The translations under genes and the position numbers were made by a program. The notes under the pieces were generated by a model, which saw only the letters and a program-made list of their open reading frames with translations, ran no database searches and was not told the origin of the DNA. DNA of 64,000 bases from Oligoflexales bacterium. Lineage in GTDB: Bacteria; Bdellovibrionota_B; Oligoflexia; Oligoflexales; JALZUQ01. The stretch covers positions 3,286 through 67,285 of the forward strand of contig JALZUQ010000013.1 in the NCBI GenBank assembly GCA_023301465.1, read 5' to 3'. This document shows positions 42,134-64,000 of this stretch, one piece after another; positions within the stretch are counted from its first letter, which is position 1, and each line of letters begins with the position of its first letter.

Positions 42134-42712
42134 CTATTTCTTCTTACGTTTAGTTGCTTTCTTCTTAGCAGGCTTACGCTTAACTGCTTTTTTCTTAGCA
42201 GGCTTACGCTTAACTGCTTTTTTCTTAGCTGGTTTACGCTTAGCTGCTTTTTTCTTAGCTGGCTTACGCTTAGTAGCTTTTTTCTTCGTTGCTTTTTTCT
42301 TCGTAGTCTTACGTTTTTTAGCAGTTGTTTTTCTTTTAGCAGTTTTACGCTTAGTAGCTTTCTTCTTAGTCTTACGCTTAGTAGCTTTTTTCTTAGTTAC
42401 TTTACGCTTCGTAGCTTTACGCTTAGTTGCTTTCTTCTTAGTCTTACGCTTAGTAGCTTTTTTCTTCGTTACTTTACGCTTAGTAGCTTTTTTCTTCGTT
42501 ACTTTCTTCTTTTTCTTCGTTGCTTTCTTCTTTGTCTTACGTCTGGTTGTTTTTTTAGCAGTTGTTTTACGCTTTGCTACTTTTTTCTTCGTTGCTTTTT
42601 TCTTCGTTTTCTTTTTAGTTGCTTTACGCTTCGTAGTGCTTTTTCTTTTTGTAGCCTTACGCTTCGTTGCCTTCTTCTTCGTTGCTTTTTTCTTTGTTCT
42701 TTTCTTTGCCAC
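42134..42712 (-). CDS. Histone-H1-like / Hc-like lysine-rich repeat protein
   Basis: GTG start 5 nt after a perfect AAGGAGG. The 192 aa consist almost entirely of K/R/T/A/P in KKKATKRK and KRKPAKKKA(V/A) repeats. A terminator lies directly downstream. The long opposite-strand ORF is the hydrophobic mirror image. Confidence 0.7.
   Translation of the reverse strand: MAKKRTKKKATKKKATKRKATKRKSTTKRKATKKKTKKKATKKKVAKRKTTAKKTTRRKTKKKATKKKKKVTKKKATKRKVTKKKATKRKTKKKATKRKATKRKVTKKKATKRKTKKKATKRKTAKRKTTAKKRKTTKKKATKKKATKRKPAKKKAAKRKPAKKKAVKRKPAKKKAVKRKPAKKKATKRKKK
42150..42700. repeat. Imperfect tandem coding repeats (about 24-30 nt period) inside the Lys-rich gene
   Basis: The unit gcaggcttacgcttaactgcttttttctta occurs twice in direct succession. 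Diverged copies follow (gctggtttacgcttagctgc..., cttacgcttagtagctttt...). Confidence 0.8.
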
Positions 42713-52218: not shown

Positions 52219-53933
52219 TTCGTGATTTTAAACGCCTCAAAACAACTTGGAGTTTCTTCGGCAGCAAGAAAAAACTCGTTTATATTTGCTTCATCATGCT
52301 ACCTATCATTGCAATTTTTCAAGCTGTTCCTCCTCACTTACTAAAATATGCAATTGATCTAGGCATGCAAAAAAGCGACTATTCAACACTTTCATTTTAT
52401 AGTTTATTATTCTTTGTTACTGCCATTATCGAGTATGCAAGTCGAGGCGGACTCAGCTACCTTGCATCTGTTGCTGTACAGGCAATGATTGCCAATATGA
52501 GAATGCATGTTATCAACCACCTCATGAGTCAATCCTCAAGCTTTCATGATAAAAAACTAAGTGGTGCACTTGTCACGAGAGCAACTAGCGACTTTGATAA
52601 TTTATCAGAATCACTGAATCAAGGCCTTCTTAGCAGTGTCGTCGATATTTTTGTCATTATTTCCTGCGGTGTGGGCATGTATCTACTAAGCCCAAACCTC
52701 ACTTTGTATGTTATCGGAGTAGTTCCAATTGTAGTTGTTACGATTTATTTTTTCTCGAAAGCAGTAAAAAAATCTATGCTTAGTGCAAGGTCTCACCTTG
52801 CAAGTGCTAATGGTTTTTTTCAAGAGTCTCTGACTGCACGAGAGATGATTAAACTCATGTCGGCATCAAAGTACGTTTATTTAAAATATAAAAACAAAGT
52901 AAACGAGTTTAGAAACAAACAAATGGAAAGTGTCATTTATGATGCAACTTTATTCTCGATTGTCCACGGCATCTCAGCCATCACACTAGGCTTTGTTTTT
53001 TGGTTGATTGCAAAAAACCAAAACCTACTTGGAGAACTAAGCATTGGTGTTTTTATCGCATTTGCACAATATATACGCCAGTTCTTTGAACCCATCAAAC
53101 AACTCAGCTCAAAAATTGCTATGCTTCAAGGAGTCTTTACGTCTCTACAAAGAATAGAAGATGTTTTAAGTTATGAAGATTATGTTGAGGGCAATCAAAA
53201 AATCACAAAACCAGTGAGTGGTATCGAATGTAAAAATTTAAATTTTAGCTATGACACCGCACCTATTTTAAATCAGATCAGTTTTAGTGTCAGCCACGGA
53301 AAATCATTAGCACTTGTCGGACGCACGGGTTCTGGAAAATCTACCGTCATGAGAATTCTTAGCAAACTCTATGATAACTATAGCGGCCAGATTCATATTG
53401 ATGGACATGACCTTAGGACTCTAGACCCTTTTGAAGCAAGAAAGCATTTTGGGATTGTTTCTCAAGAAGTCGTCATGTTTGAGGGAAGTATCGCATTTAA
53501 TATTTGTGGAATGAGTAAAAGAGATGACCATAAACTCAACCAACTCGCTAAAGATATTGGTTTGGATCGCATCATTACTAGATTGCCTGAGGGGTGGGAT
53601 AGTGAAGTTGATTATGGCGGAAAGAATTTTTCTCTTGGTGAGAGACAATTATTTGCTTTTGCAAGAGCACTCTACAAAGACCCTCAGTATATTATTTTAG
53701 ATGAAGCAACAGCATCCATTGACCCAGAGTCAGAAAAACTTATAGAAGTAGCAACTAAAAAAATCCTTCAAAACAAAACAACGATTGTAGTTGCTCACCG
53801 CCTTAACACGATAAAAGCCTGTGACCATATCATTTTGCTGGATAACGGTAGAATTGTAGAAGAAGGAAGCTATGGAGAGTTGATTGCCAAAGGTGGAAAA
53901 TTTCACCATTTGGCCGATCATGCACTAACTTAG
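52215..53933 (+). CDS. ABC exporter half-transporter (TMD-NBD), subunit 2 of a heterodimer
   Basis: 572 aa. Walker A is GRTGSGKSTVM, the signature is the non-canonical FSLGERQLFAFARAL, and Walker B is IILDEATASID. It overlaps subunit 1 by 4 nt. Confidence 0.9.
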   Translation: MIRDFKRLKTTWSFFGSKKKLVYICFIMLPIIAIFQAVPPHLLKYAIDLGMQKSDYSTLSFYSLLFFVTAIIEYASRGGLSYLASVAVQAMIANMRMHVINHLMSQSSSFHDKKLSGALVTRATSDFDNLSESLNQGLLSSVVDIFVIISCGVGMYLLSPNLTLYVIGVVPIVVVTIYFFSKAVKKSMLSARSHLASANGFFQESLTAREMIKLMSASKYVYLKYKNKVNEFRNKQMESVIYDATLFSIVHGISAITLGFVFWLIAKNQNLLGELSIGVFIAFAQYIRQFFEPIKQLSSKIAMLQGVFTSLQRIEDVLSYEDYVEGNQKITKPVSGIECKNLNFSYDTAPILNQISFSVSHGKSLALVGRTGSGKSTVMRILSKLYDNYSGQIHIDGHDLRTLDPFEARKHFGIVSQEVVMFEGSIAFNICGMSKRDDHKLNQLAKDIGLDRIITRLPEGWDSEVDYGGKNFSLGERQLFAFARALYKDPQYIILDEATASIDPESEKLIEVATKKILQNKTTIVVAHRLNTIKACDHIILLDNGRIVEEGSYGELIAKGGKFHHLADHALT

Positions 53934-54565
53934 GTATTCAGTAATTCTTTTAATTCCCTCATGAACTCTACGCTGTCTGTCAAAGACAATAACTGTTCTC
54001 TATGAGATAGAATTCTACCTTTCACTAAACTTTGCATAGGCAATGCCCTCCAAGCAATAAGCTCATTCAAAGACTCACCATCTCCACGAGCAATGTCACG
54101 TTTCAGTGTGTCTTCGTTAACTAATATAAAAGAAGAAACAGAACCACGCGATCGATCGATCAACATCTCAGAAGGGTTTTCAGAAAGTCCTGTTGTTAAA
54201 TCTACTAAATACGATTTTGGAGAAAACTCAAGTAATGTCCCTGTTCCTGCATCAGTGGCAAATGACAAAGCTCCAAATGTTGTAAAAACAAATCCCAGAT
54301 TCCAAAGAGCTGTTTTATTAATATTTTTACGTAATGAAAATCTCTTAGTCTTATAGCCTTCTTTTTTTACAGTCACAAAAGTTTCTTGAAAAGTAACACT
54401 CCTAACAGAAAAACTTACCGGTGCTTCTCCAATCTTATTGCCATCCACATAAACGATTGCTCCTACTGGTTCAGAAGCAATCGTTACTTCATCACCTTTT
54501 TCAGAAAATATGGTGGCACAACTTACTTGCATCAACAAAATGAAATACAACACTAGTCTCTTCAT
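53930..54565 (-). CDS. PEGA-domain lipoprotein
   Basis: 211 aa with lipobox MQVSCA. The N-terminal PEGA-like strand pattern is VTIASEPVGAIVYVDGNKIGEAPVSFSV. Confidence 0.65.
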   Translation of the reverse strand: MKRLVLYFILLMQVSCATIFSEKGDEVTIASEPVGAIVYVDGNKIGEAPVSFSVRSVTFQETFVTVKKEGYKTKRFSLRKNINKTALWNLGFVFTTFGALSFATDAGTGTLLEFSPKSYLVDLTTGLSENPSEMLIDRSRGSVSSFILVNEDTLKRDIARGDGESLNELIAWRALPMQSLVKGRILSHREQLLSLTDSVEFMRELKELLNT

Positions 54566-56129: not shown

Positions 56130-59100
56130 TTATAATGTCAGTTGTTCTAAATAAGTTTTAAAGGCTAAACTCCGCTCTTTAGCTCCAGTTTTTTCGTAGC
56201 CTTTTATAAGATAGTTAAGAACCTCTAAATCATCAGACTCGATCTCATAGTATTGCTCAAATTGGCTTAAGGCATTTTCAATATCATTGTTATTGAAATA
56301 ATAGACACCTACAATTTTATGAAAGTATTCACCACAAACTTCCACAGCTTTTTCTTCATACTGCAAAAGCTCAGCTAGTAATGATGATGACAAATCATTT
56401 TGATTGGAACTCGTAGCTGCATGAAACCAGTAACATTTCGTCAAAATATTAGCGTAACTATTATGCTTTTTAAAAATTTCATTTACTTCTTTAAATTTTT
56501 GTTGTTCTAACAACCCAGCAGACCACCAGTTTAAATAAGAAGTTGAAGGCTCTGAATTCATCATTTGCTCAAACTCAACAACCGATTTTTCAAACATTCT
56601 TGCTTTGAATAACAGTTCTCCTTTGGCAATTTTTTGTTCTTTATTCGTTGGCATCAGCGGTGCAATAGAATCTCTTAGACTATAAATTTTTTCAAACTGA
56701 CCTTGGTTTAAGACACTCTTTAAAAACGCAAAGGGATCTAAATCTAAATACTGTAAAGACTCCCTAATGCTTAAAGCTTCTTTTGGATAATGCTTAGAGA
56801 AAAACTCTTTTAACTCACCATCAAGTTGGTTTTGATCAGAATAAAATAAACGGGATTGCCTTACTTCCGCATACGCATTCAGATCTGTATTCACTGGGGT
56901 TTCATTAAAATTTGAGACGACCTCTTCTCTTGTCATCGCAAAAAAACTTAGTATGTCATTAATTGAATTGGCTGGAATATTATGAAGTTTTCTTTTCATT
57001 TGCGGCTTTGCCACCAGTTTTTCAAATCTTTTTGAGTTTAGTTTTAATGGCTCATGAGATCCCACAATGATCATTTCTTGATCTTCGGGGTTTGTAAAAA
57101 CTGCACCGTGTTCAAAGACTGTAAAAAATGTTTTTAAAATACTTTGGACTGCAATAGAATCAATATTATATAAATTTAACCACTGACCATAAACGCCACC
57201 TTGCGTTAAATTTTCTGAGACTATCTCAAAAAAATCTTGAGTAAAGAGGTTCGCAACACCTGCAAGCCATGAATGTGAAGGCTGAGAAACAATAATATCA
57301 AAAGGACCTCTTTGTTTTGTGGCAAGAACAAATCGTGCGTCTTCGATCTGAAGCTTTACATTTTTTCTTGCGGTAATTGGGTTATTGTTTTTATGAACAT
57401 ATTCAGCAGCGTCCATAATCCCTTGCTCTAACTCTGCAACTTGAACTAACCCAAGATCTGTTTGACTTAAAAAATCTACCGTAAAACCACCGCCATACCC
57501 AACAATAAATGAAGAATTTATATTCTTTGAGAACAGGTAAGGCAACATCCCAAGAAGAGCTTCGTAACGCGGAAACACATCAATATTATCTAAGTCATAA
57601 ATTGACTCATTTAATCCGTTTGTCTTTAGTCTTAAGTACCTATTAAAATTCTCACCTCCAGATGAATCTATAGATAAACTTGTAATTGCAGATTTACCTT
57701 CTGTAATCTGCACAAACTTTTCATCTTCGTTAAACGCATCTAACACTTCCGGGATGGATTTAAAATCGCTAGCAGAAAAATATGCACTTTTAATAATATT
57801 GGTAAAGTTTGGCTCAATCCCCCATGAACCAAGTAACAATAAAACCCCTAATGCATATGGCATGATTTTAGTGATTGAAGTGTTTTTTTGAGATGACCAC
57901 ACCCAAACCCCGGCACCAACTAGTGGGACGACAGCAATCATTGAAGCAACATGGGACCCTAAACTCGGTAATACCAATAAACCTAACCCCATCGAAGCTA
58001 AAATAGACCCAAGAGTATTTATTCCATACGCTCTACCTAAATTTAAAGATACATCTCCCCCATCATTCGTCATCGCTTTTACGATTAATGGAAATAAAAT
58101 TCCAAAGAGCAATGTGGCGGGAAACATAATGATTCCTGAAACTATTGATTTTGCAAATAAAGTCGAAACCGGCCAAATATCACTTAAGAGGACCTGTAAT
58201 GTCAAAGACATCTTTGGTGCAACATTTAATAAAGCCGTCACTGCAAAACAAACAAACGCTGTAAAAGCAAGTGAAACACCAATGGCTAGTTTAAGATTAT
58301 GGAATTTGTCAATCCAACGACTAACCATTAATGAGCCTAAAGCAATTCCAATTAAAAACAGAGCTAAGACCATTCCAATTCCAAAGATATTCGTTCCTAA
58401 AAATACAGTGAGATACTTAGTCCAAATAACTTCGAACCCAATTGCACTAAAACCTGTTACAAATGCAATGGATAAAAATTGGTAGTTCGGTAATGTTTTA
58501 ATGCTCTTTTGTACTTCTGCTTTCTTCTCAATTACTTGTTTAAACAAAGACGAATATTTTAAGTGAAGACCGTAAATCATAAGAGCAGCAATAAAGTAAA
58601 CAGCAATTGCCAAGAAGTTTGCACCATTGACACCAATATAAGGTATGAAGAAATAACTGGTACAAAAAGCTCCAGCGACTGCACCTAGGGTATTAACACC
58701 ATATAAAATACTAACTGTTTTTCCAGCTGAATTATCTTGAAGCTGAATAAATTTTACGAGTAAAGGTAAAGTAATACCCATTCCAACTGCAGGTCCTAAT
58801 ATACAAAGACCCACAAGAGAAAATTTTATGACGGCATTTAAAACAAAAAAACTTTCTCCAAAATTGAGAAAGCGAAGAAAAATATGAAACTCATTGAGGG
58901 GAAAGAAAATCAAAAGTGCATATAAGCCAACAGCAGCTTCAATCCATGCATAAACTTTGAGGTGTTCTTTTACTTTGGAGCTAAGTTTTCCACCAATATA
59001 ACCACCAATACCTAAGCCACCAAAGAAGATCCCTAAAACGATTCCCATAGCAGTGGATGTTGAACCAACACTTAGAGATAAAACTCTAATCCATACGGTC

Positions 59101-59168
59101 TCAAGAGTTAAGCTAGCTAACCCTGAACAAAAAAATACAAAAAGCAAAGCAACATTCAAGTAAGTCAT
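56130..59168 (-). CDS. Fused polytopic membrane domain / spermidine-synthase-like methyltransferase fold / TPR-like C-terminus
   Basis: 1012 aa. The N-terminal ~450 aa have more than 10 TM helices. The middle has aminopropyltransferase-like motifs (IVGYGGGFTVDFL; FDIIVSQPSHSWLAGVANLFTQDFFEIVSENLTQGGVYGQW). The C-terminal ~250 aa are helical-repeat-like. Confidence 0.7.
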   Translation of the reverse strand: MTYLNVALLFVFFCSGLASLTLETVWIRVLSLSVGSTSTAMGIVLGIFFGGLGIGGYIGGKLSSKVKEHLKVYAWIEAAVGLYALLIFFPLNEFHIFLRFLNFGESFFVLNAVIKFSLVGLCILGPAVGMGITLPLLVKFIQLQDNSAGKTVSILYGVNTLGAVAGAFCTSYFFIPYIGVNGANFLAIAVYFIAALMIYGLHLKYSSLFKQVIEKKAEVQKSIKTLPNYQFLSIAFVTGFSAIGFEVIWTKYLTVFLGTNIFGIGMVLALFLIGIALGSLMVSRWIDKFHNLKLAIGVSLAFTAFVCFAVTALLNVAPKMSLTLQVLLSDIWPVSTLFAKSIVSGIIMFPATLLFGILFPLIVKAMTNDGGDVSLNLGRAYGINTLGSILASMGLGLLVLPSLGSHVASMIAVVPLVGAGVWVWSSQKNTSITKIMPYALGVLLLLGSWGIEPNFTNIIKSAYFSASDFKSIPEVLDAFNEDEKFVQITEGKSAITSLSIDSSGGENFNRYLRLKTNGLNESIYDLDNIDVFPRYEALLGMLPYLFSKNINSSFIVGYGGGFTVDFLSQTDLGLVQVAELEQGIMDAAEYVHKNNNPITARKNVKLQIEDARFVLATKQRGPFDIIVSQPSHSWLAGVANLFTQDFFEIVSENLTQGGVYGQWLNLYNIDSIAVQSILKTFFTVFEHGAVFTNPEDQEMIIVGSHEPLKLNSKRFEKLVAKPQMKRKLHNIPANSINDILSFFAMTREEVVSNFNETPVNTDLNAYAEVRQSRLFYSDQNQLDGELKEFFSKHYPKEALSIRESLQYLDLDPFAFLKSVLNQGQFEKIYSLRDSIAPLMPTNKEQKIAKGELLFKARMFEKSVVEFEQMMNSEPSTSYLNWWSAGLLEQQKFKEVNEIFKKHNSYANILTKCYWFHAATSSNQNDLSSSLLAELLQYEEKAVEVCGEYFHKIVGVYYFNNNDIENALSQFEQYYEIESDDLEVLNYLIKGYEKTGAKERSLAFKTYLEQLTL

Positions 59169-59536
59169 CTTCCCTCAATCTCCCAAAATACCCACTTAAC
59201 ATAGCAAGTTAAGGGCCAATTATGTTAAATCACATTTTAACATGCCATATAGACCTTTCATATAAAGTGATGGTGATTTTCTGAACTTTTATTCAGAGAA
59301 AATGAATATGGTTTGGTAACAAAACTTAACCACCCTCTAACTTTTCTCAACCACCCTTAGATTAAAGTAGGCAAAAACTAACTTGCCAAAAGGCTAAAGA
59401 CAGAATGATTGCTAATATAAAAATCATTAACACGTCATAATGACTAGCTTTGCCTAAAGGTATAAACGTTGCATAATTTGATGTGAATCATTGCATTCAA
59501 CTAGATTTTTAACCAACACGGGGGGGACCGGTTTCT

Positions 59537-61492
59537 ATGAATAGAATGATAACAACTTCGCTACTTGGCTTTGCAAGTTTTGCAATGGCATTTGAGCCAG
59601 TATTTGCTCAGATGAAGCCCATGCGGCCAAAACCAAAGCCCATGCGACCCAGACCACAACCTAAACCACGTCCAAAACCACAACCTAAACCACGTCCAAA
59701 ACCACAACCTAAACCACGTCCAAAACCACAACCTAAACCACGTCCAAAACCACAACCTAAACCACGTCCAAGACCGCAACCTAAACCGCGTCCAAGACCG
59801 CAACCTAAACCACGTCCAAGACCGCAACCTAAACCGCGTCCAAGACCGCAACCTAAACCGCGTCCAAGACCGCAACCTAAACCGCGTCCAATGCCTCAAC
59901 CGAAGCCACGTCCAAGACCAATGCCTCAACCGAAGCCACGTCCAAGACCGATGCCTCAACCGAAGCCACGTCCAAGACCAATGCCTCAACCGAAGCCGCG
60001 TCCAAGACCGATGCCTCAACCGAAGCCACGCCCAAGACCGATGCCTCAACCGAAGCCACGTCCAAGACCACAACCAAAACCGCGTCCGAAGCCGCAGCCG
60101 AGACCAATGGTTAAACCAATGCGACCAATGGGACCGAAGTTTAGACCAATGCCTAAACCAAGACCAAAAGCACGTCCGCAATATAGAGGTAAAACAGGAT
60201 ACTTTTTCACAAGTAGAGGCAGCTGTGCATACTTCTTAAGAGGAAACTTCCAAAGATTTACTCTTAAATCATACTGTAGACCATTGATTGCTGGCACAGG
60301 CAGTAACTCATGTACGTATGCATATGACGGAAGGTGTGATGATGGAAGATCTGGCTCTCACTCATCTGCATGTAGGTATGGCACGGACCAAAATGATTGT
60401 AAGTACACTAAACCTTTAGCTCCTATCCCAACAGGACCTAACTCGTGTCAGTTTGCTTATGATAAACAATGTGATGATGGAAGGCTTTACGCACAGAGTT
60501 CAACTTGTGACTACGGAACGGATCAATATGATTGCAATCGTATTTTCGGACCAGCTCCACAACCGAACCCAGTAGAACCTAACTATGTTGCTACACAAAT
60601 TAAAGTGAATGTTCCTTATGGATCACAGATTAAAGTGAACGGAAACTCTGTGAAGCAAACGACAACATCTACTGAGTTTACAAAGTACAACTTATCTGAT
60701 GCACAGATAACATCTACAAATATCAGTGTTCAAATCGCTGAAAAAGATGGATATCACACTGCAAGCAGAAAAGTTTACTTAAAAGGTGGGGAGTCTCATG
60801 AGTACAATTTCTTTAACGTAAACTCACAACGTCAAAAGAATGCTAATGGAAAGACATCCATTTCCATTAAAGCACCAAAAGGATCTCAATTAACCATTTC
60901 TGGAAAAATCGTAAACATGGGTACGCAAGTAAAAGTATTCAATGCTACGAACATTCAACCGGGAATGATTTCTCAAGGGTTTAAACTTAAGGTGACTTAC
61001 AAAGCGTTAACCTCGAAAGGCTATGAATCCATCACTCACGATCGAAGTTTCACACTTGTGGGAGGCGAAGATCACTACTTGGATTTTGCAAACGAGGGAA
61101 GTATCGGTATAGCAAATCTATACACATCATTAAACACAGCAGCTTTAGGTGCTTGTGAAAAAGGTGTAAACGTAGATCTAGCACTATACGGTGGTGACTA
61201 CTACAGATTAACGAAGTACAACATCCTCGTAGATGAAAGTAATTGTGCAGACTCCAATGCACTCAATTGGGTAAAAGTTGGACCAGTTACTTACTACGCA
61301 ATATCTGTAGACACTGCTAGCAACGGTGCTTACCAGTACAGATTAAGTGATGGCACAAGAACCAACCTTGCAATTTTCTCAGATAAGTATGATGAATCAA
61401 CATTGGCTTCTGAGTTAAAATTCGCAAAACCACAGTCTGGAGAAGTTTACTACTCCAACGGTTATGAGCCAGAAGTAGAGGAGAAACCGTAA
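59537..61492 (+). CDS. Secreted Pro/Lys/Arg-repeat protein with twin Cys-rich modules and a beta-rich C-terminal region
   Basis: 651 aa with signal peptide [24 protein letters not shown] and GGGGGG upstream of the ATG. About 190 aa of PKPRPxPQ-type repeats are followed by two CxYAYDxxCDDG...C.YGTDQxDC modules. A terminator lies downstream. Confidence 0.7.
59612..60185 (+). repeat. In-frame tandem repeats (24-nt and 30-nt units) encoding PKPRPKPQ / PKPRPRPQ / [10 protein letters not shown]
   Basis: Read directly. The unit ccacaacctaaaccacgtccaaaa occurs 4 times, ccgcaacctaaaccgcgtccaaga-type units 5 times, and ccaatgcctcaaccgaagccacgtccaaga-type units about 6 times, plus degenerate flanks. 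That is about 17 contiguous units with no spacers. Confidence 0.9.
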
Positions 61493-61526
61493 TAAATTAC
61501 GGGTAAAACTTTACAAAATAATGAGG

Positions 61527-61562
61527 CCCGGTGGACGATGTTCACCGGGTTTCATTCTTTTC
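61527..61562 (+). terminator. Rho-independent terminator
   Basis: GCCCGGTG-gacgatgtt-CACCGGGT followed by TTCATTCTTTT, about 35 nt after the stop of the repeat-protein gene. Confidence 0.6.
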
Positions 61563-61630: not shown

Positions 61631-62488
61631 ATGAACCATCAAATATACACCATTACAAAAACACTCGGATTATCATTATTGATATTAGCAGCAAATAGCG
61701 TCCATTTATTCGCACAAGCTACCCCATGGCTAGGAGTAGAAATTTCTAAACATTCAAAGGGGGTTATGATTGAAGGTGTCATTGAAGGCTCATCAGCAGA
61801 CAAAGGTAAATTAGAACCGGGAGATCTTTTAACGAAGATTGACAACGTTGTTCTAAAATCACCGAAGGAACTAATTTCTTATGTCCAAAGTAAACCTGTT
61901 GGCACAAATGTAAAACTTGAATTTATGAGAAACTTAAAGCCTCAAAAGAAAATTATGAAACTCACTGCTAAACCGAGTGAGGAAGAAGCTATCAGCGAAC
62001 TACACATGAATAAACCCATGAAAGACTATGCTCTCAATGTCTTTGCATACGATCCAATCACAAAAAGTGTCAAAAATTATCAAACAAGCGTTTCTAAAAT
62101 CAAAAAGAAGTCCATTGTTCTAAAGTTTTGGGCTACATGGTGTCCAGCATGCCTGTCCACCCATTCCCTCATAAATCAAAAACTATTAAACAACAAAGAC
62201 GTTGAAGTTCTTGCCATCACGAATGAAAAAGACACAAAAGCTATTACAGACTTTATTATAACCAACAAACCAAAATTCTTAATTGTCCAAGACAAAGGCT
62301 ACGCTATTAGAAAAGAATGGTACTTTTCAGCAATACCTGCTTTTGCTGCCACAAATCAAAAAAGAGTCGTAAAATATATTAAACTTGGAACAGTAGACAC
62401 TATGAAAAAAACAGACCTCATCACAAAAAAAGAGACCGAAGTCACCGTTAGCACTGTTGATATGAGTTTTGCTACTGCAAAAAAATAA
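61631..62488 (+). CDS. Periplasmic PDZ-domain / thioredoxin-like (TlpA/redoxin) fusion protein
   Basis: 285 aa with a signal peptide. The PDZ pattern is GVMIEGVIEGSSADKGKLEPGDLLTKIDNVVLKSPKEL. The redoxin motif is LKFWATWCPACL (CxxC). Confidence 0.8.
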   Translation: MNHQIYTITKTLGLSLLILAANSVHLFAQATPWLGVEISKHSKGVMIEGVIEGSSADKGKLEPGDLLTKIDNVVLKSPKELISYVQSKPVGTNVKLEFMRNLKPQKKIMKLTAKPSEEEAISELHMNKPMKDYALNVFAYDPITKSVKNYQTSVSKIKKKSIVLKFWATWCPACLSTHSLINQKLLNNKDVEVLAITNEKDTKAITDFIITNKPKFLIVQDKGYAIRKEWYFSAIPAFAATNQKRVVKYIKLGTVDTMKKTDLITKKETEVTVSTVDMSFATAKK

Positions 62489-62617: not shown

Positions 62618-64000
62618 TTATCTTCTGCCGCCTTGTCTGCGACCGTTACGGTTTCTAAAGTTAGTTTGTCTGTTTCTTTGAAAACCTGTTTGGTTATTAA
62701 TTACTGGGTTAACTTGTTGTCCAAGTATTGGGTTTGTAACTCCAGTATTAATTAGTGGTTGATTAATACGTGGTTGAGTAAAACCTTGGCTTCCCGGTAA
62801 TTCAAGAATAACGTTTTGTACATCTAGTTGCATGACACCGATGAACTGTAAAGGGTTTGTATCAATCGCTTGCTCAGGAGTGATTTCCCAGTTTACTTCG
62901 ATCCACTCGTTGCTACCCGGTTTGTTTGCTACATAACTTACTAAAATAGTCAGTTCAGGTGTACTATCGCTTCTTCTAGAAATCAGTTCGCAGTAGTTTG
63001 CTCTTACAATTGTTGGATAAGAAGAAAATGCATTAAAATGTGCTTCTACAGTTGCCCATTGAGTTTGAGTCATAAGGTTCAATGGAGACCTGCTACAACG
63101 CTCATTTAATTGACTCAGAGTAGATTTAGCATCTTCTTTATCCGTGAAATAGTTGATAAGCATTCTTCTTTTTGCTTTTACTTGGCCAAATGCACCACCG
63201 ACCAGAGTTCCATAACCATCAGTCGCAATTGCTACATGATTATTTGCAAAGTAAGGGTCAAGCTTATGAACATTCCCGTTACCTAATGGACCTGTTGGAG
63301 TAGATTTCACACATGATTCGATAACTTTACCGTTAGCATACTGACGTTGTAGTAAATACTCAGCACCATTTGTATTTAATCCACCTGCGAAATTTGTACC
63401 AGTGTTTCCGTTACAAGTTACATCTAAGTAAGTTGCGTCAGTTCCAAACTCTGAAAAACTTGAATTTGCTGCATACTCTGAAACAAGTTTACCATACTCT
63501 TCAATCCTGCTTTGCACTAAATGCCAATCACTTGGAGTTCTAATTTGGTAGTCTGTACCAATATGGAAAAATTGATTTGATTGATTAGAAAGGTTACCTT
63601 CAACTCCAGATTGCACAACTTGACCAGCAAATGCATTTTGATAATCAAAGTTAGGGTCTACTTGACCAAAATCAACACCTTGCTGACCTTCAACCGCAAC
63701 CGGAAGACTTCCATCAGCAATAACACTACTAAAAACAAATGGGTGTGTTTTTGTATATGAAACAAATCTCTCAGAACCAATCGTTGGAACAACTGAAAGA
63801 ACATAAGACTCTTGTGGAGTAAGATCTGATAATGAAATAAGACTTGTATCTTGAACTGGGCTCCAGCCAGAAATTTCATTTCCTAAGCTGTCCTCTAGAC
63901 GAGATTCCCAAATGATAGAAGTTGAGTTGACGGTCAAAGCGTCAATATCAAGTTTGAAGTCAGCAGTCAGATCATTGATGCTGCCAGCAACAATATTAAA
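62618..64000 (-). CDS. Large hypothetical protein, N-terminus beyond the right window edge, with an Asn/Gln/Arg-rich C-terminal tail
   Basis: The reverse frame stays open from the stop at 62618 to position 64000 (FNIVAGSINDLTADFKLDIDALTVNSTS...). The track start at 63937 is therefore only an internal TTG. The C-terminus is ...NNQTGFQRNRQTNFRNRNGRRQGGRR. Confidence 0.6.
   Translation of the reverse strand, partial: FNIVAGSINDLTADFKLDIDALTVNSTSIIWESRLEDSLGNEISGWSPVQDTSLISLSDLTPQESYVLSVVPTIGSERFVSYTKTHPFVFSSVIADGSLPVAVEGQQGVDFGQVDPNFDYQNAFAGQVVQSGVEGNLSNQSNQFFHIGTDYQIRTPSDWHLVQSRIEEYGKLVSEYAANSSFSEFGTDATYLDVTCNGNTGTNFAGGLNTNGAEYLLQRQYANGKVIESCVKSTPTGPLGNGNVHKLDPYFANNHVAIATDGYGTLVGGAFGQVKAKRRMLINYFTDKEDAKSTLSQLNERCSRSPLNLMTQTQWATVEAHFNAFSSYPTIVRANYCELISRRSDSTPELTILVSYVANKPGSNEWIEVNWEITPEQAIDTNPLQFIGVMQLDVQNVILELPGSQGFTQPRINQPLINTGVTNPILGQQVNPVINNQTGFQRNRQTNFRNRNGRRQGGRR

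Follow-up and report, generated by a model that had tools for sequence, protein, structure and literature searches.

The gene at 59537..61492 on the forward strand of the window (the 64,000-nucleotide stretch of Oligoflexales DNA analysed here; the stop codon is included) encodes a modular, predicted exported protein of 651 aa in which a polycationic proline-rich tract directly follows the signal peptide. The only relative that we found carries a tract of like composition at the same place, made of another repeat unit. The reading that fits best, which we hold tentatively and as somewhat short of probable, is that of an extended, protease-resistant polycation that serves as a tether or an electrostatic anchor and, by gaining and losing units in frame, drifts in length.

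The tract (residues 25–215; 59609..60181, + strand) contains 89 proline (47%), 36 arginine, 29 lysine, 20 glutamine and 13 methionine residues and no aspartate or glutamate, with a net charge of +65. Proline follows 63 of the 65 lysine and arginine residues. Aromatic residues, leucine and isoleucine are absent, apart from a single phenylalanine in the degenerate tail. Between degenerate flanks of 17 and 28 residues lies the core array (residues 42–187; 59660..60097, + strand), in which 17 tandem units of 24 and 30 nt give a perfect (Pro-X)73 with proline at every odd position. Splitting the sequence at PKPRP yielded four PKPRPKPQ, five PKPRPRPQ, one PKPRPMPQ and five 10-residue units, then single PKPRPRPQ and PKPRPKPQ units. 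This agrees exactly with the sub-families listed in the preliminary description of this DNA, as does the position of the array behind the signal peptide. Tandem Repeats Finder detected a repeat of period 24 at 59651-59920 (11.2 copies, 93% matches, score 414) and one of period 30 at 59888-60070 (6.1 copies, 94%, score 331), which bears out the near-identical 24- and 30-nt repeats noted earlier, and also a 2-copy 21-nt repeat at 59615-59656 that corresponds to two copies of a PMRPKP seed. The regularity of the array is far beyond chance, and no other proline-rich stretch occurs in any frame of the window. The seven framing codons (PKPRP..PQ) differ among the 17 units only synonymously, and the only amino-acid changes between units are K, R or M at codon 6 and a 2-codon PM insertion. 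The synonymous variation of the framing codons argues for purifying selection on the protein frame.

The product is identical to the 651-aa NCBI record P0156; in two public records the same gene was cut to 513-533 aa by gene callers. Residues 1–24 (59537..59608, + strand) comprise a short basic n-region and a 15-residue hydrophobic core, with valine at -3 and alanine at -1 of a predicted cleavage site between VFA and QMKP. Judged by eye and by rule of thumb, this would be a cleavable-type Sec/SPase I signal peptide; it is nearly identical in the relative and contains neither histidine nor cysteine. Upstream of the gene we noted a weak promoter-like site (TTGCCT-16-CATAAT, 59450..59477, + strand, 9/12 matches in a consensus scan) and, from reading the sequence, a weak G-rich putative ribosome-binding site (59520-59526, + strand). 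The consensus scan also returned a terminator-like hairpin with a 17-bp stem at 61520..61556 (+ strand), 28 nt past the stop codon, which suggests that the gene is a monocistronic unit. The Rfam and tRNA scans of the window gave no match. The coding frame is that of the + strand, for there the ORF crosses the array without a stop and continues into the C-terminal part shared with the relative; minus-strand ORFs across the array (59561-60181 and others) are mirror images of the repeat and were rejected. Two further candidates were also discarded. A phase-variable on/off contingency locus does not agree with units of 24, 30 and 21 nt, all multiples of 3, which would change the length and keep the frame, and a polyprotein precursor does not agree with units that abut without spacers or dibasic sites.

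Genes were scanned from 43.6 kb to the end of the window, with about 2.4 kb beyond it in the scaffold of a sister sample (L007); close to the gene, the Pfam/NCBIfam scan covered ORFs of at least 100 aa. The neighbours encode methyltransferases, an acetoacetate-CoA ligase, ABC transporters, a PEGA protein, an acetyltransferase, an MFS/SpdSyn protein, a PDZ-redoxin, a 2OG-oxygenase and unknowns. Both in the window and in the locus of the relative, the gene immediately downstream encodes an exported protein with a PDZ domain and a thioredoxin fold; NCBIfam gives it a weak similarity to MsrAB fusion proteins, in their thioredoxin-like part. This neighbour and the 12 cysteines of our protein, even in number in each sub-domain, are consistent with an extracytoplasmic location.

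The sole relative in the databases searched, P0002 (locus L001), is 79% identical in the C-terminal part and has the same synteny. No further relatives were found in the GTDB species genomes or JGI metagenomes with an alignment of the C-terminal part (A1), nor in JGI with alignment A3, so that the family is known from two lineages and its statistics, resting on two members, are thin. In L001 the array follows the same signal peptide at the same position, with the same degenerate flanking motifs. Its tract of about 401 aa consists mainly of 35 PMRPKPQ and 5 PMRPMVQ units, encoded by a 21-nt unit; it likewise lacks aspartate and glutamate, carries a net charge of +113 and has proline after 111 of its 113 lysine and arginine residues. 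Only 11 PRP motifs occur in these 401 aa, against 31 (counted with overlap) in the 191 aa of the window tract. Composition and placement are thus conserved between the two, and unit, length and PRP content are not. Seeds of the PKPRPKP type occur in L001 and the PMRPKP seed occurs in the window; since the seed of each lineage is found in the locus of the other, different seeds appear to have been amplified in each. The earlier proposal of expansion by slippage or recombination held up in this comparison, as in-frame amplification of units. Methionine is enriched in both tracts (7% in the window, 15% in L001), and a purely electrostatic role leaves this conserved enrichment unexplained.

Proline-rich polyproline-II (PPII) linkers are common, and the array stands at the extreme of this class, as a fast-evolving version of TonB-type linkers. 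What sets it apart is a perfectly periodic, acid-free (Pro-X)n that reaches 190 residues in one lineage and about 400 in the other, with +65 to +113 as net charge, in an exported protein whose free N-terminus it forms; between these two close relatives the unit was replaced wholesale. Here nature shows clearly how selection can work on composition and physics and not on sequence, and the tract might be used for testing how the length and charge of a PPII polyelectrolyte set reach and adhesion in the bacterial envelope.

The C-terminal part begins with a 34-residue segment (60182..60283, + strand) that contains two cysteines (C230, C247), is conserved in P0002 and matched no family. It is followed by two copies of a 4-Cys module, C.YAYDG.CDDGR...C.YGTD..DC, at C259-C288 (60311..60400, + strand) and C304-C333 (60446..60535, + strand). 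Both copies were recognized from 341 representative-library matches that map to the module, and from their alignment (A2), with four invariant cysteines and a conserved aspartate. An AF2 model of the module reached pLDDT 81 and no match was obtained in Pfam, NCBIfam or PDB; to judge from these matches, the module would be of a widespread, uncatalogued type. NCBIfam returned a single family for the protein, TIGR03000 (plancto_dom_1), in two stretches within residues 352–518 (E 2.3e-11; 43.5 bits, barely above the curated cutoff of 43.1). Domain 1 (residues 352–426; 60590..60814, + strand) shows weak PEGA similarity (E 0.2), and the TIGR03000-like domain 2 (residues 440–518; 60854..61090, + strand) is an internal duplication of it (BLASTP, 29% identity, E 7e-8). 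The orphan C-terminal domain (residues 519–651; 61091..61489, + strand), with two cysteines and the acidic tail EPEVEEKP, matched only P0002 and no family or PDB entry. AlphaFold2 run on residues 212–651 without an alignment gave pLDDT 33, which is unusable as a model; for the TIGR03000 and C-terminal domains there is a single homologue on which to base one. We found no published papers on TIGR03000 or on proline-rich repeats of Bdellovibrio.

How might such a protein work? We infer that a divergent diderm bacterium, Bdellovibrionota-like, exports through Sec a protein of several modules held by disulfide bonds. The taxonomic placement is tentative and relies on the named PBP2 matches at 41-42% identity; a GTDB scan with the UvrA of the window gave only Prevotella matches at 33-36% identity, of no use for this purpose. 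Once its signal peptide is cleaved, the protein would begin with some 190 residues of acid-free Pro-X, where X is K, R, Q or M, unable to fold and probably PPII-like, extended, highly hydrated and semi-flexible. Its nearest analogues in sequence, the TonB/TolA linkers treated below, speak for such a conformation. Resistance to trypsin-like proteases would be intrinsic to the tract because proline follows nearly every lysine and arginine. The tract may stick electrostatically to anionic polymers of the envelope or matrix, such as the phosphates of LPS, acidic polysaccharide, eDNA or the surface of prey. The binding modules (both copies of the 4-Cys module, the pair of TIGR03000 beta-domains and the orphan domain) would thereby be held or spaced tens of nanometres away. 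Such polyanion binding by Pro/Arg tracts is supported by Bac7-type Pro/Arg peptides, which are reported to aggregate with anionic cell-associated polysaccharide (PMC13162253). Selection would act on composition, charge and overall extension and leave the exact motif free, so that the tract could evolve quickly, with fast turnover through in-frame slippage or unequal recombination and a different seed unit amplified in each lineage. Trypanosome procyclin (EP/GPEET, PF05887), too, has a long and perfectly alternating X-Pro array, which makes a surface rod that is extended and resists proteases, but procyclin is acidic (Glu-Pro), GPI-anchored and eukaryotic, whereas the array is cationic and bacterial, and the Pfam match between them (E 0.39, 11 bits against a cutoff of 100) is purely compositional.

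The preliminary description had favoured a rigid spacer that projects the C-terminal domains from the cell surface, and neither part of this proposal is supported in that form. Projection from the surface requires an anchor at the far end of the array. The array lies at the predicted free mature N-terminus, and the sequence and the Pfam/NCBIfam scans revealed no lipobox, transmembrane helix or sorting signal in the 651 aa; with no identifiable anchor, the proposed tether would have to hold by electrostatics alone. As for rigidity, the contour length of the array is 59 nm and that of the relative's about 124 nm, far beyond TonB/TolA-type linkers of about 100 residues, and a chain this long should be semi-flexible and not a rod.

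The rival that survives best, though we consider it unlikely, is a passive linker or entropic bristle, that is, a disordered, protease-proof spacer or a solubility or steric element in which charge only prevents collapse. Unit sequence and length are free to differ between the relatives, the proline-rich region of TonB was dispensable for function (Larsen 1994, as cited in PMC9022066), and similar linkers occur on many exported proteins. Gram-positive proline-rich spacers such as the PPII tail of FctB, thought to let folded domains clear the wall (PMC3707005), share with the array an extended, proline-rich sequence terminal to Ig-like or beta-sandwich domains. FctB-type tails are C-terminal, short (some 15 residues, at most a few tens) and next to an LPXTG sortase signal, whereas the array is N-terminal, in a diderm-type genome and without a sorting signal. 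Closer to it are three uncharacterised exported proteins, P0169 (PEGA-tract-PEGA), P0189 (signal-tract-CAP) and P0163, with acid-free K/R/Q-Pro tracts beside beta-sandwich or secreted domains. The layout of P0189, with the tract immediately behind the signal peptide, is that of our protein. The tracts of all three are shorter (82-137 residues) and of imperfect period, and outside the tract there is no homology to the array protein. P0169 and P0189, which we count in favour of the tether as well, show exported proteins of the beta-sandwich and CAP kinds using cationic tracts of the PKPRPQ type as linkers or tails. However, a spacer with a free end can hold nothing apart until that end is attached, and in two lineages not one acidic residue occurs in tracts of 191 and 401 residues, whereas TonB/TolA linkers mix glutamate and lysine. 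This exclusion argues that positive net charge is itself selected.

An offensive polycation is in our view improbable. Here the tract or the secreted protein would permeabilise the outer membranes of other cells, as polylysine and protamine do by displacing divalent cations from LPS, or would act on the ribosome or DnaK in the manner of proline-rich antimicrobial peptides (PrAMPs). The best named homologues of the PBP2 encoded in the window (41-42% identity) are in Oligoflexales/Bdellovibrionota MAGs, and the phylum includes predators. PrAMPs such as Bac7, PR-39, oncocin and apidaecin share with the array a high proline content, a strong positive charge, overlapping PRP motifs and a PPII-type conformation (PMC7736402), and PKPRPRPQ resembles the PRPRPRP stretches of Bac7. 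The composition of the tract lies above the minimum set for PrAMPs, 25% proline and +1 net charge (PMC7736402, Box 1). PRP, an indicative, non-essential feature, is present in the window tract but is not what the two tracts have conserved. What is essential to PrAMPs is antimicrobial activity and an intracellular target, the 70S ribosome or DnaK (PMC7736402), and PMC12056610 presents them as host-defence peptides of animals, insects and plants. In L001 PRP gives way to a dominant PMRPKPQ. The window tract, apart from the single tail phenylalanine, has no aromatic residue or leucine beside PRP, unlike DnaK-binding peptides of the oncocin/pyrrhocoricin type, e.g. YLPRP; many peptides of the surveyed PrAMP-like set, which spans 6-79 residues, have Tyr, Leu, Phe or Ile around PRP (PMC7736402). 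Mature PrAMPs are released from precursors, whereas the array is a 190-aa domain of a 651-aa bacterial protein with no processing sites between units, almost all K/R-X bonds being K/R-Pro. The array is joined to folded domains of a binding type, some 435 aa in all, for which a diffusible peptide would have no need; this covalent link and the absence of processing sites speak, indirectly, against an intracellular target. No adjacent immunity or export genes were present among the neighbours scanned. Nothing supports an antibiotic-peptide role for the array, and the ribosome-targeting segment entertained in the preliminary description is accordingly weak. A bolder variant, a long shot, is a 60-120 nm Pro-X tentacle used as a weapon or grapple, which would bind and destabilise the LPS of others or act as a PrAMP-like inhibitor, the first that is bacterial and not processed; target specificity would come from the Cys modules and beta-domains, and the rapid repeat turnover would reflect an arms race. 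If the polycation were active on the envelope of other bacteria, it would, hypothetically, be a new kind of bacterial effector.

A methionine-rich redox or metal buffer, i.e. a periplasmic oxidant sink or Cu(I)/Ag(I) binder that the PDZ-thioredoxin protein or other thiol-redox partners would service, is very unlikely. The window tract has 13 methionines and that of L001 has 62, one per unit, and the weakly MsrAB-like gene lies next downstream in both loci. However, the terminator-like hairpin separates the two genes, K/R-Pro and not methionine dominates the tract, and the neighbours scanned include no Msr, cupredoxin or Cus/Cop gene. The methionine spacing also departs from the MxxM/MxM pattern of known Mets motifs.

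Similarity searches with the array might suggest a force transducer of the TonB/TolA type, in which an uncleaved N-terminus on an ExbBD/TolQR-type motor anchors a tract that spans the periplasm and C-terminal domains that engage the outer membrane; we regard this as hardly credible. Most of the best 120 of 202 matches were TonB/TolA proteins, aligned through their proline linkers, and to this extent the array is of the TonB-spacer type, as first described. The three-part layout (hydrophobic N-terminus, Pro-rich domain II, globular C-terminus) resembles that of TonB/TolA and of recently proposed transducers with a non-TonB C-terminal domain (PMC12204202). Domain II of TonB/TolA (the PF16031 region of proteins with PF03544/PF13103 C-terminal domains), an extended PPII spacer across the periplasm (PMC9022066, PMC12204202), has similar K/P-rich X-Pro repeats with PKPKPQPKP-type runs, is extracytoplasmic and, like the array, keeps its composition while its sequence is poorly conserved. 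Its linkers, however, are about 40-100 residues long, usually with EP and KP runs, whereas the array, acid-free and without a PF16031 match, extends over 190-400 residues, 2-4 times the approximately 100-residue domain II typical of the family. They also lie between an SHLS/His inner-membrane helix and the C-terminal domain, the conserved histidine docking on the motor (PMC12204202). No such helix was found in residues 1–24, where hydrophobic residues extend over no more than about 15 positions, the cleavage site is of a classical kind and histidine, and with it an SHLS motif, is lacking. A Pfam hmmscan of the protein at E<=1 returned Trypan_PARP (the procyclin family) only, and no TonB_C, TonB_2 or TonB_N (PF03544 and PF13103 included). 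TonB/TolA genes sit with exbBD/tolQR, but neither exbB/exbD nor tolQ/tolR was present in the scanned neighbourhood; MotA_ExbB and ExbD matches were absent from the roughly 16 kb upstream (43.6-59.2 kb) and from the next three downstream genes (scanned, or precomputed in L007).

That the array arose from repeat mis-assembly, or that the region is untranslated, is barely conceivable: short-read assemblers do collapse such repeats, and the array is interrupted in two public assemblies of the population, but it is present in all three, recurs with another unit in the relative's independent assembly (long-read, judging by the contig name) and is read through in an open frame with synonymous framing-codon variation. 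The ENA scaffolds L002 (same sample) and L007 each contain three 100-N gaps, all within 59660..60097. Outside the gaps their sequence is 100% identical to the window, on which the pieces line up end to end except for one gap of 24 nt and one overlap of 19 nt. The array is real and its copy number alone is in doubt; the figure of 17 units is one assembler's resolution and at best a minimum estimate, and the tract in the real genome is probably longer than 190 residues. Variation in length between strains, as suggested in the preliminary description, finds a hint in L007, which has three 30-nt units where the window has five (60 nt difference), though this count is confounded by assembly collapse. 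In practice, short-read assemblies break at this repeat, and its copy number in a MAG is unfit for interpretation. As to the frameshifts in L001, read errors are the simplest explanation, the assembly being one of 3.19x.

The repeat array lies in an ORF of 651 aa (59537–61492, plus strand), with a promoter-like site upstream (59450–59477) and a terminator-like 17-bp hairpin downstream (61520–61556), both of which are consensus matches only. Read from the sequence, residues 1–24 of the product ([24 protein letters not shown]) resemble a Sec signal peptide, with one basic residue, a hydrophobic core of ~15 residues, a helix-breaking EP, and V at −3 and A at −1 ahead of Gln25. The Pro-rich tract follows directly (59609–60181, plus strand, up to residue 215). 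When we split it at PKPRP, the unit census of the preliminary description was exactly reproduced: 4 PKPRPKPQ, 5 PKPRPRPQ, 1 PKPRPMPQ, 5 [10 protein letters not shown], 1 PKPRPRPQ and 1 PKPRPKPQ, in that order. TRF detected arrays of period 21 (59615–59656, 2 copies, encoding KPMRPKP), period 24 (59651–59920, 11.2 copies, 93% matches) and period 30 (59888–60070, 6.1 copies, 94% matches). The tract is composed of 89 P, 36 R, 29 K, 20 Q and 13 M, with one each of V, G, F and A; since it contains no Asp or Glu, its net charge is +65. Residues 42–187 form a perfect (Pro-X)73 stretch with Pro at each odd position, the overlapping motifs comprise 31 PRP and 25 PKP, and 63 of the 65 K/R residues are followed by Pro. 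The 64-kb window has no further Pro-rich stretch, whichever frame is read. The array is richer in GC (55%) than the window (37%), as its CCN and CGN/AGA codons would predict.

Codon variation within the array argues that it is coding and constrained at the protein level. The frame is open across it into ~435 aa conserved in a homologue, and among the 17 units all five PKPRP codons and both PQ codons vary, by synonymous changes only (CCT/CCG/CCA, AAA/AAG, CGT/CGC, CAA/CAG). Amino-acid differences among units are limited to K/R/M at the sixth codon and a two-codon P-M insertion. Minus-strand ORFs over the array were rejected as mirror images of the repeat.

A comparison of the C-terminal 440 aa with 5.8 billion protein clusters returned, besides the protein itself, a sole relative (P0002, 79% identical). 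No other full-length relative emerged when 1.84 billion representatives were searched exhaustively with HMMER, and GTDB genomes and JGI metagenomes, when scanned, yielded none either. P0002 is encoded on L001, a 13-kb contig of 3.19x coverage whose name suggests a long-read assembly. L001 keeps the gene order acetyltransferase, 309-aa ORF, fused MFS/spermidine synthase (opposite strand), target, PDZ-redoxin and 439-aa ORF (62618–63937, minus strand, in the window). The signal peptide is near-identical to that in the window, and the same degenerate motifs stand at either end of the tract. The L001 tract (L001 4890–6090; 401 aa after repair of one frameshift, most simply a read error) is made up mainly of 35 PMRPKPQ and 5 PMRPMVQ units, encoded by a 21-nt repeat (TRF, L001 5078–5931, 40.6 copies). 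It has 164 P, 63 R, 50 K, 62 M and 48 Q, no D or E and a net charge of +113; K/R is followed by P in 111 of 113 cases, and PRP motifs number just 11. Both tracts keep their position, a Pro content of ~41–47%, cationic character, freedom from acidic residues and K/R-Pro bonds, with Gln and Met as further residues; they differ in unit sequence, in period (8/10 versus 7 residues), in length and in PRP density. Met occupies 13 of the 191 residues in the window tract and 62 of the 401 in L001, one per PMRPKPQ unit. Two PMRPKP seed copies are present at the start of the window tract and PKPRPKP-type seeds at the start of that in L001; that each tract keeps the seed of the other indicates that the two lineages amplified different seeds of one ancestral tract.

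Neither helices nor sheets can be formed by X-Pro repeats, which occupy the extended PPII region (PMC3707005). With 0.31 nm for each residue, the window tract would have a contour length of ~59 nm and the 401-aa L001 tract one of ~124 nm, versus root-mean-square end-to-end distances of ~11–22 nm and 16–32 nm when a persistence length of 1–4.4 nm is assumed, which suggests a semi-flexible polyelectrolyte and not a rod. The preliminary description had proposed a rigid spacer; the extended cationic Pro-X tract of hypervariable length survives from that proposal, whereas the rigidity and, given the free N-terminus, the anchoring call for revision. A tract at the free mature N-terminus could serve as a spacer only if it were itself attached. 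That both lineages exclude acidic residues altogether, over 191 and 401 residues, argues for electrostatic attachment to a polyanion, for which LPS, acidic polysaccharide, eDNA or the surface of another cell would be candidates. Aggregation with anionic polysaccharide of bacteria has been reported for Pro/Arg peptides such as Bac7 (PMC13162253). We tentatively favour, with slightly less than even confidence, the reading that the tract is a protease-proof polycationic tether or anchor, which would place the C-terminal binding modules and hold them in position, and whose length would drift through in-frame gain or loss of units. K/R-Pro bonds are resistant to trypsin-type proteases, and such resistance would suit a protease-exposed protein.

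The feature is an extreme low-complexity linker in an otherwise orphan protein of an uncultured lineage, and linkers of this kind are already known. With residues 1–225 as the query, 202 proteins matched at E ≤ 0.001, and most of the best 120 of these have a TonB_C or TonB_2 domain or a TonB/TolA name; as the matches fall on TonB/TolA proline linkers, they indicate shared composition and not homology. The TonB proline-rich region is extended and PPII-like, able to span the periplasm and dispensable for energy transduction (PMC9022066), and domain II of TonB/TolA is conserved in composition rather than sequence (PMC12204202). A merely passive linker or bristle nevertheless seems unlikely to us: the matched TonB/TolA linkers are short and of mixed charge, with Glu-Pro and Lys-Pro runs, whereas the window and L001 tracts are acid-free. 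The longest acid-free cationic Pro-rich stretches among the matches, all in uncharacterised exported proteins with PKPRPQ-type tracts, were 137 aa in P0163, 110 aa in P0189 (signal peptide-tract-CAP domain) and 82 aa in P0169 (PEGA-tract-PEGA), versus 243 aa by the same measure in the window and at least 305 aa in L001.

An offensive polycation or segment resembling proline-rich antimicrobial peptides (PrAMPs) is less probable still. The tract does have the composition of a PrAMP (≥25% Pro, cationic, PRP present; PMC7736402, Box 1), a definition whose two essential criteria are antimicrobial activity and a ribosome or DnaK target. However, PRP density collapses in L001; the Tyr, Leu, Phe and Ile found beside PRP in many PrAMPs are missing, bar one Phe in the tail; the units abut, with neither spacer nor dibasic processing site; and ~435 aa of folded domains are fused to the tract. 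The sole available comparison, that with L001, does not favour the envelope- or ribosome-targeting role suggested at first. The conservation of Met is unaccounted for by the linker or anchor explanation, and a Met-based redox or metal sink would be a very improbable one. A TonB-like transducer is barely credible: new transducers are reported to combine a SHLS/His-motif helix, a ~100-residue linker and non-TonB C-terminal domains with adjacent motor genes (PMC12204202), whereas the repeat protein has no His-bearing helix, TonB_C domain or adjoining motor genes (no exbBD/tolQR among the scanned neighbours).

The array exists, and an artefact is just as hard to credit, but its 17 units are best read as a minimum count. 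The protein cluster of the repeat protein has three members, of 651 aa (NCBI) and of 533 and 513 aa (ENA), the latter two being gene calls cut at internal Met codons. The two ENA products come from the scaffolds L002 (652 kb, SAMN23429950, the same sample as the window) and L007 (sister sample SAMN23429949), both of which are interrupted within the array by three N runs, each exactly 100 long (window 59732–59855 versus L002 2535–2946 and L007 3535–3946). Outside the N runs the sequence matches the window with 100% identity, in pieces that reach to 59731, span 59756–59855 and resume from 59837 onward. Their boundaries imply a 24-nt stretch absent from one gap and a 19-nt overlap across the other two, and by this tiling no gap-free path through the repeat is shorter than the window. 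The 30-nt units number three in L007 versus five in the window; since the absent pair is the exact outcome of skipping the loop between identical units 1 and 3, real polymorphism and assembly collapse are indistinguishable here. The array reported earlier stands in its existence and unit census, whereas the figure of 17 copies is unreliable in view of the N gaps.

Directly after the tract come a short two-Cys segment (residues 216–249), two 30-residue copies of a four-Cys module (60311–60400, residues 259–288; 60446–60535, residues 304–333), two TIGR03000 (plancto_dom_1) domains (residues 352–426 and 440–518) and an orphan C-terminal domain (residues 519–651) with no family or PDB match. TIGR03000 scored 43.5 bits against a cutoff of 43.1; its two domains are an internal duplication (E 7e-8) and weakly PEGA-like (E 0.2), PEGA being the most similar Pfam family. 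The 12 cysteines fall in even number in each sub-domain, consistent with a disulfide-bonded extracytoplasmic protein. Nearly all of the 341 representative-library matches are due to the Asp-rich four-Cys module, C-x-[FYW]-A-x-D-G-x-C-D-[DE]-G-x(7-9)-C-x2-G-T-D-x2-D-C. Its partners elsewhere are papain-like, caspase-like and trypsin-like peptidases, peptidoglycan-binding domains, Ser/Thr kinases and EGF/HYR domains. Its sequence had no match in Pfam, NCBIfam or PDB, and Foldseek found none in PDB for its AF2 model (pLDDT 81), which has almost no regular secondary structure. It seems to be an uncatalogued extracytoplasmic module, possibly Ca-binding.

The scanned neighbours (ABC exporters, a PEGA protein, an acetyltransferase, the fused MFS/spermidine synthase and an exported PDZ-thioredoxin protein) give no functional hint for the repeat protein. 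The PEGA-domain protein (53930–54565, minus strand, 211 aa, E 3e-10) lies ~5 kb upstream. The fused MFS/spermidine synthase (56130–59168, minus strand, 1012 aa, NF037959) is oriented divergently from the repeat gene, an arrangement kept in L001 (84% identity), and its C-terminal extension is weakly TPR-like by sub-threshold matches only. Directly downstream is the PDZ and thioredoxin-fold (Redoxin) protein (61631–62488, plus strand, 285 aa), signal-peptide-like by eye at its N-terminus; the L001 counterpart is 46% identical and frameshifted. It is possibly linked to the Cys modules or the Met-rich tract. The genome is of diderm type, with PBP2/MrdA and an MsbA-like ABC transporter. The closest PBP2 homologue among 5.8 billion clusters is only 45% identical; the best named ones (41–42%) come from Oligoflexales and Bdellovibrionota MAGs, so that the host is tentatively placed as a divergent Bdellovibrionota-like bacterium. 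The peptide patterns tried were shared by no GTDB species genome, and the low-GC (37%) lineage of the host seems to be poorly sampled. Scans of the 64-kb window for tRNAs and Rfam families gave no match. A second repeat-encoded polycation of the window is the product of a 192-aa ORF (42134–42712, minus strand) with no obvious signal peptide. It is a histone-H1-like low-complexity protein in which tandem repeats of KKKATKRK type (periods 15, 30 and 93 nt) leave room for little besides K, T, A and R.
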